A DNA stretch of 8,881 nucleotides, taken from a virus. Taxonomy: Duplodnaviria > Heunggongvirae > Uroviricota > Caudoviricetes. Below the pieces are notes generated by a model. The model searched no databases and was not told where the DNA came from. It saw only the letters and a program-made list of their open reading frames with translations. Shown here one piece after another: positions 1,809-8,881 of this stretch. Each line of letters opens with the position of its first letter. Within the stretch, counting starts at the first letter, position 1. Position numbers and translations under genes: made by a program. The DNA lies in IMG/VR virus record IMGVR_UViG_2700989170_000005. One strand, written 5' to 3'.

Positions 1809-2837
1809 TTATTTCACCTGCACCACCACAAACTCATCCGGATCCGGCAGCACCATCAGCGGCGCGGACTGCGTCATGGTGAATTCACGCGCCGGATCAC
1901 CCACGGTCAGCCAGTGTTTCGGATAACGGGAAGACGCCACCACGCCTTCAGACAATGCCTGCGCATCCTGAATGGAACCGTAGCAACGAATACCCTCTGC
2001 GGCCGTATTTCCCAGTACCAGTGTGCCGTCCGGCAGATAACGTTTTTCGGTACCGTCCTCTGCCACATAGGACGTTTTTGCCACCACGATTGCCAGATCA
2101 CCATAATACCCTTTGAAGGACACCACCGCCCCCAGGTCTTTCACTGCCGTTTCCAGCTGTGAATTTGAGCCACGACGGGTATCCAGTTTTTCGCGGAACA
2201 GCTTAAAGCCATTCAGCAGACGCCAGACCTTACCATCCATAATGGCAATATTGATGGTGCCGGAAGCAAAATCACAGTACGCATCCAGATCATGCGTCGG
2301 ATCAAAGGTATCGCGGTCCTGAGCGCTCCACTCCGTCCCTCCTGCCTGCGTAATGTTATTTCCCACCGACCGGCCAAAATCGACCTCAACAGTTTCAAAC
2401 TGCTCTCCTTCCATGGTGTATTTGCCATACAGCACGGCATTCACCGCCTGCATCTCTTCCACCTGGACAATGGCGTGCTCTTCCTGTTTGAGGTTATCGG
2501 TGATGATACGCAGGCGACGGTAAGCCGGGCCGTTCAGCTGGGCCGGATCTTCACCGGGAAGACGCTCCACCGCCTGCTGGTAATTAAATTCGTGTTTCGG
2601 CTTAACGTAGCCCGGGCGCAGTACACGAGTTTCACCGCCACGGTGACGCAACACCTTTCCTTCAACAACCGGGGAGACATAGGCCGCCACCGGCGTTTTT
2701 CCGGTAATTTTGTCCAGCATTACCTCTTCGGTATGGAAATTCACCGTACGGCGGAAAAACAGCTCCAGAAACAGCGCACGAAATTTAACTTTTTGTTCGG
2801 TATAACCGAGTAACTGGCGGGTCGTAAACAATCCCAT
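1809..2837 (-). CDS. E: Major capsid protein (lambda gpE-like), 342 aa
   Basis: ORF 1809..2837 on minus strand. Long colinear match to lambda gpE (341 aa), e.g. PGYVKPKHE, AIVQVEEMQAV.AVL.GKYTM.GE.F..VEVD.GRS..NNITQ.GGTEWS, KLDTRRGSNS.LETAVKDLG, REFTM.QSAPLM.L.DPDEF. ATG at 2835-2837 with AAGGAA 8 nt upstream. Confidence 0.95.
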   Translation of the reverse strand: MGLFTTRQLLGYTEQKVKFRALFLELFFRRTVNFHTEEVMLDKITGKTPVAAYVSPVVEGKVLRHRGGETRVLRPGYVKPKHEFNYQQAVERLPGEDPAQLNGPAYRRLRIITDNLKQEEHAIVQVEEMQAVNAVLYGKYTMEGEQFETVEVDFGRSVGNNITQAGGTEWSAQDRDTFDPTHDLDAYCDFASGTINIAIMDGKVWRLLNGFKLFREKLDTRRGSNSQLETAVKDLGAVVSFKGYYGDLAIVVAKTSYVAEDGTEKRYLPDGTLVLGNTAAEGIRCYGSIQDAQALSEGVVASSRYPKHWLTVGDPAREFTMTQSAPLMVLPDPDEFVVVQVK

Positions 2838-2894
2838 AAATCAGTTCCTTTCATTCAGAAATCAGTCAGGCTACCGCAGTGACCTGATAAAATG

Positions 2895-3242
2895 TTACGG
2901 CAGCGCTGCGTGACTCAGGGCACTGCCGGCAAAGGCATTCGCCTTTTTGTGTGTATCCACTCTCTCAGGCCAGTGGATGGCCTCCGTCGCAAAGGTCCCC
3001 GACTTGTAATACGTCAGCACCGTCTCTGTACCTTCAAGCGGCAGTACCAGTATGCCAACCACATGGCCTGCCTTCTGTCCGTCCCAGACCACCAGTTTCC
3101 CGGTATCCTCATCCAGCATCAGGGGCGTCAGAGCCGGTGTTGCCGAGGAAATCCCGCTGCAGCCTGTGGCGGTATGGGCCGGATCATTACCGGCAAAAAT
3201 ACGTACTTCCGCACGCTGTTCAGTGATGGTTTTCGTTACCAT
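2895..3242 (-). CDS. D: Head decoration protein (lambda gpD-like), 115 aa
   Basis: ORF 2895..3242 on minus strand. DPAHTAT, TPLMLD...KLV.WDG, VGIL, YYKSGTF, FAG.A match lambda gpD (110 aa). ATG at 3240-3242 with GAGG about 11 nt upstream. Confidence 0.9.
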   Translation of the reverse strand: MVTKTITEQRAEVRIFAGNDPAHTATGCSGISSATPALTPLMLDEDTGKLVVWDGQKAGHVVGILVLPLEGTETVLTYYKSGTFATEAIHWPERVDTHKKANAFAGSALSHAALP

Positions 3243-3278: not shown

Positions 3279-3947
3279 TCATGGCATGGCCATGAGCATT
3301 TTCACGTCCGCATCACCGTCTGCTGACGTCTGTGGCACGCCACCCTGTACCGCTGCCGGTGAATGGTTCGCCATGNNNNNNNNNNNNNNNNNNNNNNNNN
3401 NNNNNNNNNNNNNNNNNNNNNNNNNNNNNNNNNNNNNNNNNNNNNNNNNNNNNNNNNNNNNNNNNNNNNNNNNNNNNNNNNNNNNNNNNNNNNNNNNNNN
3501 NNNNNNNNNNNNNNNNNNNNNNNNNNNNNNNNNNNNNNNNNNNNNNNNNNNNTTTTCAGCCTGCGCCTCTGCCCCTTTTGCCTCATCCAGGGCCATAATC
3601 TGATCACGAAGTGAGGGTCCGGCATTCGCCTGCGGTGAAGCAGCCAGAATCGGACGGGCTTTTTCCACCGTCATCTCCGGCATCGCCGCCAGCGTTGCCG
3701 CCAGTTGTTCACGTCCTTTCGCCTCTTCACATGCCATAATGCGATCGGCTTCACTCTGCGCAGATACACCAGATTGTTGCGGTGCCGCCACGGCCAGAAT
3801 CGCCCGGGCCTGCTCAACGCTCATACCCTGTTGCCCTGCCAGCATCGTGGCCAGTTGTTCACGTCCTTTCGCTTCCTGACACGTCAGGATCCCCATCACT
3901 CGCTGGTTCTCCTGCGCGGCAGCCTCCGTTGCAGTTAATTGCGGCAT
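3279..3947 (-). CDS. nu3: Nested in-frame scaffolding protein (lambda Nu3-like), initiating internally in C at ATG 3945-3947; spans the assembly gap
   Basis: In-frame ATG at 3945-3947 (C residue 302, ..GGTMPQLTATE..) is preceded by a strong AGGAGG Shine-Dalgarno with a 4-nt spacer (minus strand ACAGGAGGCACTATG). This matches the lambda arrangement, where Nu3 is translated from an internal start in the C frame (..GGRMTKETQ..). Downstream sequence is the repeated helical scaffold-like motif. Confidence 0.5.
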   Translation of the reverse strand: MPQLTATEAAAQENQRVMGILTCQEAKGREQLATMLAGQQGMSVEQARAILAVAAPQQSGVSAQSEADRIMACEEAKGREQLAATLAAMPEMTVEKARPILAASPQANAGPSLRDQIMALDEAKGAEAQAEXXXXXXXXXXXXXXXXXXXXXXXXXXXXXXXXXXXXXXXXXXXXXXXXXXXXXXXXXXXXMANHSPAAVQGGVPQTSADGDADVKMLMAMP

Positions 3948-4850: not shown

Positions 4851-6433
4851 GTGATGTTGTCTCCTCTTCCGGCCTGCGACTCTCCGCTATCTGCTGCTGA
4901 TACGCCTGGGCTATCCACACCGGACGTGAGAGTCCGGCTTTTTCGCGCTCTGCGGATTCCCTGACCTGCTGGCGGAAAATGTCCTGATAATCTTCGCCCA
5001 TCAGTGCCAGTTCTTTCTCATACGTGCTCAGTCCGGCCTCAATGCGCATCACCGATTCCTGGACCTCCTTGAGCCCGTCAATGGCCATTCTTCCGGAGCT
5101 AATCCACTCTGCCCGTGACCAGGCTGAACGCGCCTGGTAAAAATCAAAACGCGCCCGTGGCGGACGAATAATCCCCCGAAGAAGCGCCTCTTCCAGCCAG
5201 CAGGAAAACATCTGCGTGGCCAGCCGGGCCGCAATAAATTTTCGCCGCCCCATAAAATAGCGCCACGACTCATTGGCGGAGGCGCGGGCACTTGAGTAAC
5301 TGACCTTCGAGTAATCACGGGACAACTGTTCGTAGGAAACGCCAAGACCGGCTGCAATATACCGCAGCAGCGCCTGTTCAAGCGCCGAAAATCCATTGTC
5401 TGAATCCTGCGCTGTCTGCAGGTTCAGCGCATCGCCAGGAAAAAAGGTGCGGAATTTTAACACCGCCCAGCGTCACGTTATTCGTGTCATACCAGCGGGT
5501 GAACTTCTCCAGAATATTAATAAGCGGATTATCCTGCTGACCTTGCGGTGCCCCCGCGATATATTCAAATGCCTTTTCGGTATCAAGTTCACTTTCGATT
5601 GTGGCTGCATACATCGCCTTCACAATGGCCGACTGAAGCTGCGTGGCCTGCAGGGAGTCCAGCATCTTCATCCGCTCCATTACGCTGTAAAACTGATTAG
5701 CCCCACGGGTCTGCCCGTCCTCCACCGGCTCAAAAATATGCAGCATGGCCGGACGCCCGGTGGGAAGCTCACGCGGGATCCGCTCCCAGCGTCCGGCACC
5801 AGAGAACGGAAAATCATCCTCACAGATATGGTACGCAATCGCCCGCCCATACCGATCGACCTCAACCCCGGCCCGCAGAAAGTGGTTCCCCATACCGTGT
5901 CCTGGCGTGTCCACCCGTTTCGGACTCACGGCTTTAAAACGCGTACGGAATAACTGCGTGGTTTCCGTATCCCAGACCGGCTGCACAAAGATTTCGCCGT
6001 TAAAGGCATGCACGCCCACCCCTTCACGGATAAATTCCGTAAACGTGCGTTTCCCTTCCACGTCGATCTCGCCAAACATTCCTTCTGCGTATTCCGACCA
6101 GGCTGCTTCCACCTCCCCGACAAAACTTTTTGCCGTGGTCTCCCGCATCCCCAGCCAACGCCAGTTCAGACGGTAGCTGATAAGAAACATGTGCCCGACG
6201 ATATGATCCTTATGCAGGGCCACCGCATTAGCCGCGATACCGTTATTGCGCACCAGATCATCTGCCCGGGCATTCCCCAGACGCAATGCAGGCAACAGGG
6301 CCGCATCGGCACTCTGCGCCGGTGGTAACCACTCTGCCATTTGCCCGCCAAATCCTGCGCCGCCTCCGTTGTAGCTGAGACTCTCACGAAGCGGAACGCC
6401 GTTCACATCAATCAGGACAGGCGTTCGTTTCAT
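4840..6433 (-). CDS. B: Portal protein (lambda gpB-like), about 530 aa if one base is removed from the A6/T6 run at 5440-5445; as given, split by a +1 frameshift into ORFs 5378..6433 and 4840..5463
   Basis: N-terminal ORF (351 aa) and C-terminal ORF (207 aa) are both colinear with lambda gpB (533 aa): GGG.GFGGQ, DAALLP....GNARADDLVRNNG.AANA..LH.DHIVG, PRELP.GR....H.FEPVEDGQTRGAN.FYSVME.MKMLD.LQ.TQLQSAIVKAMYAATIESELDT, then PGD.LNLQTAQD.DNG.S..EQ.LLRYIAAGLGVSYEQLSR.Y...SYS.ARASANESW.YFMGRRKF, SGRMAIDGLKEVQE.VM.IEAGLSTYEKE. The frames switch at ..GGVKIPHLF | (F)PGDALNLQ.. (lambda: GGAKVPHLMPGDSLNLQ). ATG at 6431-6433 overlaps the W stop (ATGA). Confidence 0.9.
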
Positions 6434-6633: not shown

Positions 6634-8544
6634 TCACTCCTCCGGACAGCTTCGCTGCCAGTTCTTCAAGGGTCGGTTGTGCAGTTGCATCCTTGCGGGA
6701 TGCAACTGCACAGCCAGATCAAGTTGCCAGCGTTGCACGGACACACGTAATGCCGCATAGGCATACACCAGGCAGTCCAGCGCTTCGTTACGCCGCTTTT
6801 TGTTATCCCACAACAGACGCATCTTTCCTTTTTCCCACTTTTCCACCAGTTCCTCCGCCACCAGTTGTTGTGCCTCTGTCTGCGAAAAAATCTCCGGATT
6901 ATCAGGAAAGCGGATGGCATACGATGTGGCCTCATTCACAGGGGTGGGATCGGCCTTCATTCGGGCATAGAGAATTTCTTTTGCGGTATCCGTCCCCACC
7001 TCACACAGATACACACCCCGCTGATTGCGGGTTTTCGGCATGGTGATCACCGGCTTGCCATAGACAGAGGCACCTTTTACCGGCAGTACCCGGAAAATAC
7101 CGTGTTTTTTTGACCTCTGATACACGATTTCGCCATCGATCCCCCCGATATCCCAGCAGACACGGGAAATGGTCATTTCGGTACCGTCTGCATGGCGGTA
7201 TTTTTTATTGATCGCCGCATCCACACGTAACAGCGTCTCTTCCTCATCAGGACGTCCCATGATGATGATTTTATCCACCAGAAAGGCTTCCTCTCCCGGA
7301 GCCCACCCCCAGACATACATCTCAAAACGGTTTCGCTGCGAGTCAATGCCCGCCGTCAGATAAACCACCCGGACAGGCACCGTTGCCGTGTAAGGCACAA
7401 CCTTATCCATCAGTACCTGGTGATCGAGTTTTTCGCCCACGGCCTCTTCCCAGGTCTCGCCCAGCGTGGTGTTCACAAAAGTTTTCACGCCGTTGGGATC
7501 TTTCAGTGCATCCAGCCAGTCACAGACTATCTGTACCCTGGTGGTGAACGGACTGTACGCCGTCCATATATGGAAAGTGATGGAGCGCGGCGGCGGAATT
7601 TCATTACCCGAAGCACTGAAAAACGTCAGACCGTCACACGTCCACATCCCGGTATTGTCACAAATCCAGCGCCCCCCGGTCTGATCAAGTTCAGACTGAC
7701 GGATCACGCAGCCATTATGTTCACACAGGTAATACACCGTTTCCGGTTTACCCTTCTCCCATTTCAGGCCAAACGACGTCGCATCATCGCCAAACTTCAG
7801 ATACTGCTCCTCCCCGCAATGAGGGCAAGGGACATAAAACCGCATGAAATGCGCAGATTCATTCGCAGCTTTTTCAATCTGACAGGAGCCTTTAATTTTT
7901 GGCGTTGAACCGCGTATGGATTTTGGCCATACCGAACCTTCAATACGTTTATCGCCAAGCAGTGTTGGCGAACCTTCTTTTTCCACATCCGGTTCAAACG
8001 AGGAGAGTTCGTCATAGCAGACCACATCGACAGATTTTTCACGGTAGTTTTTGGCAGCAGCACCACCCAAACACCAGAACCCCACACCAGAGGAAAAACG
8101 CTTCAGTGTGAGCGTATTATCCCGGTGTTTCCGGCCCAGCCAGGGAGAAAGTTTTTTCAGGCAAGGAACATCACGAATTGTTGCTTCCACGTGAGACTTC
8201 ATAAAATCTTCAGCAGCTGAGTCCGTCGGCTGAAAAAGAAGAGTGTTGCGGGATTTGTGCTCAATAAAATACCCGATCACACCAAGCACCATTTTTGTAT
8301 AACCAACACGGGCAGATTTAATCAGGTTAACTGTACGAATCTCGTCATTGCCCATGCAGTTCATGATGGCGACCTGAAACTGCAGCGTTTTCCATTCCCC
8401 CTCACCGTATGACGATTCTTTAGGCAGGTAATAATTTTGATCGGCCCATTCTACAGCCGTCACCGGCAATACCCTGACCAGTGGCTGCAGTGCGATAGTG
8501 ACTGCCACCATCATATTACTCAGTTGTTGTTCTGATATATTCAT
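6634..8544 (-). CDS. A: Terminase large subunit (lambda gpA-like), 636 aa from ATG at 8542-8544
   Basis: Minus-strand ORF. The track starts it at TTG 8601, but ATG 8542-8544 yields MNISEQQ.., matching the lambda gpA N-terminus MNISNSQ... Extensive colinear identity follows: TAVEWAD.NYYLPKES.Y.EG.W.TL.FQ.AIMN.MG.D.IR.VN..KSARVGY.KM.LGV..YFIEHK.RNTL, HRDNTLT.KRF..G.GFWCLGG.AAKNYREKSVDV..YDEL, SPT.LGDKRIEGSVWPKSIRGSTPK, HFMRF.V.CPHCGEEQYLKFGD, FYLCEHN.CVIRQ.ELD, TFHIWTAYSPFT, KTFVNTTLGETWE, YLTAGIDSQ, RSKKHG.FRV.P.KGASVYGKPV, TDTAKE, EAQQL.AEE.VEKW, DSKKRRNEALDC.VYA.AALR.S..RWQLDL. Confidence 0.95.
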   Translation of the reverse strand: MNISEQQLSNMMVAVTIALQPLVRVLPVTAVEWADQNYYLPKESSYGEGEWKTLQFQVAIMNCMGNDEIRTVNLIKSARVGYTKMVLGVIGYFIEHKSRNTLLFQPTDSAAEDFMKSHVEATIRDVPCLKKLSPWLGRKHRDNTLTLKRFSSGVGFWCLGGAAAKNYREKSVDVVCYDELSSFEPDVEKEGSPTLLGDKRIEGSVWPKSIRGSTPKIKGSCQIEKAANESAHFMRFYVPCPHCGEEQYLKFGDDATSFGLKWEKGKPETVYYLCEHNGCVIRQSELDQTGGRWICDNTGMWTCDGLTFFSASGNEIPPPRSITFHIWTAYSPFTTRVQIVCDWLDALKDPNGVKTFVNTTLGETWEEAVGEKLDHQVLMDKVVPYTATVPVRVVYLTAGIDSQRNRFEMYVWGWAPGEEAFLVDKIIIMGRPDEEETLLRVDAAINKKYRHADGTEMTISRVCWDIGGIDGEIVYQRSKKHGIFRVLPVKGASVYGKPVITMPKTRNQRGVYLCEVGTDTAKEILYARMKADPTPVNEATSYAIRFPDNPEIFSQTEAQQLVAEELVEKWEKGKMRLLWDNKKRRNEALDCLVYAYAALRVSVQRWQLDLAVQLHPARMQLHNRPLKNWQRSCPEE

Positions 8545-8839
8545 CGAGTAAATCCGGTAATTTATCCCCCGCACGCGCGCACTGATTCGCTCCCTTAGCA
8601 ATAAGGATTTTCAGATGATCAATATGACGCGGCGTTAAATCCGGGAACTGTCGTTGCATGGACAAAGGAATGGAGTCAAGCGTACTGGATAAAGCCATCG
8701 CCAGCTTACTAAGGGCAAAAATACAAAATCCGGTATCGATAAGATTTCCTTTTGACACCTGATTTTTTAACTGCTGTGCGACAGCCTGTTCTGCGGTCAG
8801 TTCCCATCTGGCAATGAGTAGTTTGAGGTGTACTGGCAA
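8516..8839 (-). CDS. nu1: Terminase small subunit (lambda Nu1-like), C-terminal terminase-interaction portion only (about 98 conserved aa); no credible start codon in the window; 5' part apparently out of frame or missing
   Basis: Minus-strand frame 8516..8839 translates to ..RWELTAEQAVAQQLKNQ.......TGFCIFALSKLA..L.S.LD.IPLS.QR.FP.L..RH.D.LK..I.K......A..D.L..LL.EYI, colinear with the C-terminal half of lambda Nu1 (..RHRLTRAQADAQELKNAR...ETAFCTFVLSRIAGEIASILDGLPLSVQRRFPELENRHVDFLKRDIIKAMNKAAALDELIPGLLSEYIEQSG). The stop TGA at 8516-8518 overlaps the 5' end of A by 29 nt, as Nu1/A overlap in lambda. The track's start is a TTG without Shine-Dalgarno; in-frame stops at 8849-8851 and 8867-8869 close the frame upstream. 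Confidence 0.7.
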   Translation of the reverse strand: MPVHLKLLIARWELTAEQAVAQQLKNQVSKGNLIDTGFCIFALSKLAMALSSTLDSIPLSMQRQFPDLTPRHIDHLKILIAKGANQCARAGDKLPDLLDEYIRTTTE

Positions 8840-8881
8840 TAGCGGACACTACCATTTGTTCTTTTTTTAAGCAGCCATCTG

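Follow-up and report, generated by a model that had tools for sequence, protein, structure and literature searches.

IS600-associated deletion as the probable origin of a truncated small-terminase gene in a lambda-like prophage of Shigella flexneri

The small-terminase gene at the end of the window (the whole 8,881-nucleotide stretch analyzed here, IMG/VR virus record IMGVR_UViG_2700989170_000005) was very probably truncated by an IS600-associated deletion of ~3 kb in a lambda-like prophage of Shigella flexneri, and the window itself ends 58 bases inside the IS600 element. A preliminary description, made from the letters of the window, had found the Nu1-like gene to lack its N-terminal half in frame and had left three options side by side: a frameshift or sequencing error within or near a T7 run, a real truncation or rearrangement that separates the DNA-binding domain, or a diverged N-terminus encoded beyond the window. 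The second option was correct, with its cause, IS600, going unrecognized at the time; the first and third do not hold. The observation is fully explained, and it calls for no new gene type and no unusual split or domain-swapped terminase. The event, ordinary genome decay, is of an already known kind, and the genomes that show it have been published and annotated before. The coordinates of the features discussed below are collected in Table 1.

Table 1 Features of the window that bear on the truncated small-terminase gene.
Feature	Position	Strand	Basis or remark
IS600 (IS3 family), right terminal 58 bases, ending ...ACACCTCA	8824..8881	-	Sequence identity to annotated copies
IS600 transposase C-terminus, last four codons (QMAA) and TAA stop	8867..8881	-	End of the coding sequence in the reference copy (L003)
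IS600 right inverted repeat, ~29 bases, imperfect	8824..8852	-	Comparison of left and right inverted repeats (IRL/IRR)
AAC triplet adjoining the IS600 tip	8821..8823	-	Expected place of the 3-bp target duplication
Small-terminase remnant, codons 68-169 and stop	8516..8823	-	99.8% identity to the 3' 309 nt of the intact gene
Chimeric ORF, 107 aa	8516..8839	-	First five codons (TTG start, L-P-V-H-L) from the IS600 inverted repeat, rest Nu1
Large terminase (gpA type)	6634..8544	-	Pfam GpA_ATPase and GpA_nuclease
Portal gene, split into ORFs of 351 aa and 207 aa	4840..6433	-	T5 to T6 insertion at about 5445

Several lines of evidence identify the end of the window as IS600. First, window positions 8822-8881 match annotated IS600 copies at 60 of 60 bases in 2,769 of 5,426 E. 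coli genomes, and PGAP labels the matching copies ‘IS3-like element IS600 family transposase’. Second, when window positions 8300-8881 were used as a megablast query against complete E. coli genomes and phages, the terminal ~60 bases were found in up to 43 copies per genome, some of them on plasmids, and intact small-terminase genes matched the query only from base 58 on. Third, the element boundary can be read directly from a reference copy in E. coli O26 RM8426 (our locus L003), a simple insertion in the antiterminator gene Q that occupies 795-2058 of the locus (1,264 bp, from TGAGGTAGCC... to ...ACACCTCA) between AAC/AAC target duplications. The window is identical to this copy base for base, 58 of 58, up to the tip (...CCTCA) at 8824. 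Read toward the tip, these 58 bases comprise the last transposase codons and stop, a short non-coding stretch with an A7/T7 run, and the right inverted repeat. The transposase coding sequence of the reference copy ends at locus position 2015, which corresponds to query base 15, and the transposase C-termini in L003 and in the S. flexneri locus L009 read ...REKYHQMAA followed by a stop, the same as in the window. The left and right inverted repeats (TGAGGTAGCCTGAGTTTAACGGACACTCC and TGAGGTGTACTGGCAATAGCGGACACTAC) share about 20 of their first 29 bases, and the element begins with TG and ends with CA, as is typical of the IS3 family. In S. flexneri loci identical to the window, which itself contains 58 bases of the element, the full IS600 is 1,264 bp long, begins TGAGGTAGCC and is 99.4% identical to the reference copy; it carries HTH_Tnp_1, HTH_21 and rve domains in an orfA plus orfB arrangement that PGAP annotates with a ‘programmed frameshift’.

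This identification accounts for each of the features that had seemed anomalous. As the preliminary description reported, minus-strand stop codons TAG (8849-8851) and TAA (8867-8869) lie in the frame of the Nu1-like ORF, a T7 homopolymer occupies 8862-8868 of the plus strand, the TTG at 8837-8839 is the only start that the ORF lister found for the 107-aa ORF and has no Shine-Dalgarno sequence, and the remaining two frames give the translations quoted there. Nearly all of the flagged interval, 8837-8881, sits inside the foreign element. Because 8824-8881 are the terminal 58 bases of IS600, the stops in this interval are neither chance occurrences nor errors within a terminase gene. The TAA is the genuine stop codon of the IS600 transposase, the A7/T7 run follows that stop in every IS600 copy, and both the TAG and the TTG fall within the right inverted repeat. 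The 107-aa ORF, which is also called in public annotations of five of the loci (L007, L008, L010, L011 and L013), is an artifact of the open frame.

What survives of the small-terminase gene is its 3' part. In the closest intact relative, from E. coli FDAARGOS_943 (our locus L014), the gene is 510 nt long and encodes 169 aa; the window match starts at nucleotide 202, that is, at codon 68, and residues 68-169 are kept. The boundary between terminase DNA and IS600 lies at 8823/8824, and base 8824 (A) belongs to IS600 yet restores the first base of codon 68 (AAA). The Pfam model PF07471 (Phage_Nu1) matches residues 6-83 of the 102-aa remnant at model positions 86-163 of 164 (E = 5e-19, 68.9 bits against a cut-off of 30), in keeping with the earlier statement that only the C-terminal part of a Nu1-like protein is recognizable; the length quoted there for lambda Nu1, 181 aa, is also right. 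Because the same model matches the intact relative at 84-163 only and lambda Nu1 at 1-164, the N-terminal domain of this lineage falls outside the Pfam model, and it aligns loosely to the helix-turn-helix region of lambda. The earlier remark that the other two frames were not Nu1-like by eye is accordingly not diagnostic, as the Pfam model misses the N-terminal domain even of the intact 169-aa protein.

The remnant encodes the C-terminal part of the protein, for self-assembly and large-subunit binding, and the PF07471 match covers the oligomerization/large-subunit-interaction region of the Nu1 type. Its C-terminal 100 residues align to residues 82-181 of lambda Nu1, with 43% identity over the remnant, and, as in lambda, the last part of the small-terminase gene runs into a gpA-type large-terminase gene, with 29 nt shared between the large-terminase start (8544) and the end of the remnant (8516). 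Unlike lambda Nu1, the remnant has neither the N-terminal winged helix-turn-helix domain nor the cos site that this domain binds. Codons 1-67 are missing, IS600 lies directly upstream and tblastn returned no match to the domain in the loci; the place of a cos site (cosN/cosB) directly upstream is likewise taken by IS600. Even the intact 169-aa relative differs from lambda Nu1 in its unmatched N-terminal domain and in its own candidate repeats (AACCGGACAT, three copies), which implies a packaging specificity distinct from that of lambda or phage 21.

In the stretch 8400-8881, from the IS600 tip to the large-terminase start, we found no promoter-like sites (0.9 expected) and no terminator-like sites (0.5 expected). 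A TTGCCA hexamer in the inverted repeat was considered as part of an outward-facing hybrid promoter at the IS600 end and was set aside, as by eye it had no acceptable -10 partner.

The same arrangement is found at the same place in S. flexneri genomes. The first 5,329 bases of the window’s minus strand are 100% identical to AE014073.1 (L009), which we take to be S. flexneri 2a 2457T; past the run of N in the window, one of 3,375 bases differs from nine other assemblies, and the window is 99.96% identical to the record Shigella flexneri SFBU1023, which carries the junction. The exact large-terminase protein of the window occurs in about 2,000 blocks of the assembly collection, complete chromosomes included. 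The junction of IS600 with the Nu1-type gene is present in at least nine complete assemblies (the seven genomes of L004-L010, together with L011 and L017) and in several draft contigs. Complete E. coli RefSeq genomes do not contain the window’s junction (their best coverage of the query is 90%, starting at base 58), a result that points to Shigella.

The complete genomes also extend the locus past the edge of the window, as the preliminary description had suggested doing. Where a diverged N-terminus had been envisaged they contain the remainder of IS600, followed by the Rz lysis gene, and no terminase N-terminus. In seven complete genomes, a single complete IS600, oriented as the terminase genes are, lies upstream of the remnant, and Rz lies upstream of IS600; the two junctions, Rz with IS600 and IS600 with Nu1, are exactly 1,264 bp apart, with GGG on the left flank and AAC on the right. 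Rz breaks off at residue 134 of 155, with its final 67 nt missing, and its stop is now the TGA with which IS600 begins. The truncated Rz occupies 8056-8460 of L009, and an Rz1 ORF is still called inside Rz in some annotations.

The 3-bp target duplication is thus absent at this IS600 copy in the complete genomes. In its 58 terminal bases, its TG...CA ends, its ~29-bp inverted repeats and its QMAA terminus the copy is like IS600 of Shigella and enteroinvasive E. coli; unlike IS600 generally, it has no usual 3-bp target duplication, a difference that bears on the history of this copy, by deletion or recombination, and not on its identity as IS600.

In some strains, IS600 at this locus is itself split, at nucleotides 372-377, by a ~1.3-kb IS3-family element with TGAACCGCCCC termini (L011 7526-8828; L017 about 1936-3224; L016 upstream of 1164). 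The left part of IS600 was not found within the 8-kb locus L016, which suggests further rearrangement there.

Comparison with the intact relative gives an estimate of what was lost. Homology to L014 extends to position 3344 and starts again at 6334, and IS600 takes the place of the intervening 2,989 bases. This size and content are read from one E. coli relative, whose left flank agrees with the Shigella prophage at only 94.6% identity, and what lay between Rz and cos in the true ancestor may have been different. In L014 the segment comprises the 3' end of Rz, a DUF4406 gene, four hypothetical ORFs, the sequence that precedes the terminase gene and the initial 201 nt of the small-terminase gene. 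Within it, at 5958-6054, three copies of AACCGGACAT precede the small-terminase start by 79-176 nt; one inverted copy comes first, and two direct copies 30 nt apart follow. This arrangement is cosB-like, and we regard the repeats as candidate cosB R sites. For comparison, three R sites have been described in cosB, with R2 opposed to R3 and R1, and cosB is bound by the winged helix-turn-helix of the small subunit (PMC4669245). The lambda cosN 12-mer GGGCGGCGACCT is absent from both L014 and L009.

Traces of this segment were sought in the Shigella-type loci. A blastn search with the lost L014 segment gave nothing significant in 12 such loci (±10 kb around the locus), and a tblastn search of the 12 loci with the 67-aa N-terminus (MATQTEVARHLSLTDRQLRRLQKLPGAPVSNKRGQLDLDAWRDFYISYLRRSKNDVPDGDPEEDYEE) gave a chance-level match only (13 aa, E = 5.4). 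The cos/cosB elements whose presence upstream had been raised in the preliminary description were not found either, in that the AACCGGACAT motif is absent from L009, L016 and L017. If the segment had moved by exchange between IS600 copies, a reciprocal junction should join the 5' part of the Nu1-type gene to the left end of IS600 (...GAAGAGAAAC followed by TGAGGTAGCC). This junction has no match in a species-representative genome collection, the query being one exact 26-mer from L014, in which a single-nucleotide polymorphism within the 10 bases taken from Nu1 would mask a genuine occurrence. As a positive control, the window’s own junction was found in two complete chromosomes of the same collection. 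Because the reciprocal junction has no match while the window’s junction is recovered, loss of the segment is favored over its transfer elsewhere.

These results bear on three other ways of producing the observed sequence. An IS600-mediated inversion or translocation, after which the N-terminal half and cos would survive elsewhere in the chromosome joined to another IS600 copy, is very unlikely. Shigella genomes are heavily rearranged through their IS copies, according to two published accounts (PMC7373316; PMC8072062), and direct examination covered only the ±10 kb around the locus; against this, the reciprocal junction is one that any IS-IS crossover would keep, and it has 0 exact matches in a collection in which the control was found in two genomes. 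More doubtful still, and given very little credence here, is a simple insertion of IS600 that would have left the small-terminase gene otherwise complete, its N-terminal half and cos lying just across the element. IS600 normally makes a 3-bp duplication, as with AAC/AAC in gene Q of L003, and AAC also adjoins the tip here, so an original simple insertion is plausible as a first step. The other side of the same 1,264-bp element is, however, the truncated Rz with its GGG flank in seven complete genomes, the missing 5' part of the gene has no match within ±10 kb, and the left junction predicted for such an insertion is absent from the species-representative collection. A sequencing or assembly error, in which false stops would arise in a full-length gene through miscalled bases or an indel within the T7 run, has next to no probability: homopolymers are error-prone, and the run of N and two frameshifted neighboring genes could suggest poor quality, but the 58 terminal bases, T7 run and both stops among them, are native IS600 sequence found identically in thousands of genomes, the junction and the neighboring frameshifts recur in independent complete genomes (2457T among them), no frame upstream of 8824 resembles the intact relative’s gene, and correction of a single indel restores no contiguous in-frame Nu1-like N-terminus.

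We therefore return to deletion, with a single 1,264-bp IS600 in place of ~3 kb of lambda-like prophage. Judged by the intact relative, the replaced span ran from 67 nt before the end of Rz, through accessory ORFs and cos, to codon 67 of the small-terminase gene. Two routes could lead to this structure. In one, two same-orientation IS600 copies, one in Rz and one at codon 68, would have recombined with each other; in the other, a single element would have mediated an adjacent deletion. The lack of a target duplication at the flanks points to a secondary deletion or recombination, and the end product does not tell recombination from adjacent deletion.

The rest of the window shows that the truncation is one of several lesions in this prophage. 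On the minus strand, the Nu1-like remnant is followed by a lambda-type module with a gpA-type large terminase, W, portal and an S49 protease/scaffold gene, and then by the decoration protein, major capsid protein, FI, FII, Z and U. The large-terminase gene is intact apart from a 1-nt deletion near 6707, which shifts its last 24 codons away from the reading frame of the intact relative; the protein is 636 aa long against 642 aa in the relative and diverges from residue 613, and the overlap with gene W is lost. Because lambda gpA binds the prohead through its extreme C-terminus, this change alone may disable packaging. The portal gene is frameshifted at about residue 331 of the 530 that make up the portal of the intact E. 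coli relative, and the same split is seen in the complete S. flexneri genomes of L007, L009 and L010. As the large-terminase and portal lesions are both present in complete genomes, they are real mutations, and the portal gene is a real pseudogene.

The intact packaging and head genes of a functional lambdoid prophage are, then, not found here. We conclude from the gene content that the prophage is in all likelihood defective and cannot package itself, because cos and the DNA-recognition domain are lost and the portal and large-terminase genes are frameshifted. By the same token, the remnant would have no packaging function, because it has no DNA-binding domain and no cos target and would have to work with a frameshifted portal and a large terminase with a frameshifted C-terminus. 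The prophage resembles the cryptic lambdoid prophages of E. coli K-12 and Shigella in keeping a head/packaging module, in its IS-bounded deletions and frameshifts and in having no cos; nothing of substance sets it apart from them, and it is one specific, lineage-wide instance. IS-driven pseudogenization and deletion are a documented mode of Shigella genome decay (PMC7373316).

A different role for the remnant can be imagined. The IS600 transposase gene points in the same direction as the remnant, with no terminator-like site between them, and read-through from the one into the other is conceivable. The remnant, expressed in this way and together with the altered large subunit, might then act as a dominant-negative decoy against superinfecting lambdoid phages; it would bind the terminase subunits of such related phages and interfere with their packaging. 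We consider this joint proposal very improbable. If it were true, the decoy role would make a decayed prophage a weak anti-phage asset retained across S. flexneri.

Under the preferred reading, an IS600-associated deletion, the chief value of the result is negative: the terminase is neither split nor domain-swapped in an unusual way, and this stretch contains no sequencing error in need of correction. What looked anomalous is the point at which a short contig runs into a repeated insertion sequence, and the locus adds one more documented example of IS600-driven prophage decay in S. flexneri. More broadly, when homology is lost abruptly within about 60 bases of a contig end in a genome scan, IS termini should be checked first.

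At one edge the window opens on the second base of the start codon of gene V (major tail protein), and at the other it stops 58 bases into IS600; both ends probably adjoin sequence that is repeated in the genome. In most assemblies with this large terminase, the gene lies on contigs of 5-10 kb. The window is most likely a whole short-read contig broken at repeats on both sides.

A few smaller observations concern other parts of the prophage. A run of 177 N at 3376-3552 falls within the S49 protease/scaffold gene, where ...EAKG.EQLA... motifs recur. S. flexneri genomes have only 111 nt at this place, and either the run does not preserve length or the repeat region of the source strain is 66 nt longer. 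In one assembly a group II intron-type reverse transcriptase gene (RVT_1 and GIIM) lies between Q and the holin gene of the prophage (L004 4432-5853), and in a second assembly another lies further upstream (L005 1-1167); their presence varies between strains. Finally, the ORF at 982-1359 has, at about 1200, a run of G6 where the E. coli relative has G5, and the copy in the window is open (125 aa). In the relative, the FII-like head-tail joining gene carries a frameshift annotation and has an ISEc60 insertion after it, and at this gene it is the E. coli relative that appears to be the damaged copy.
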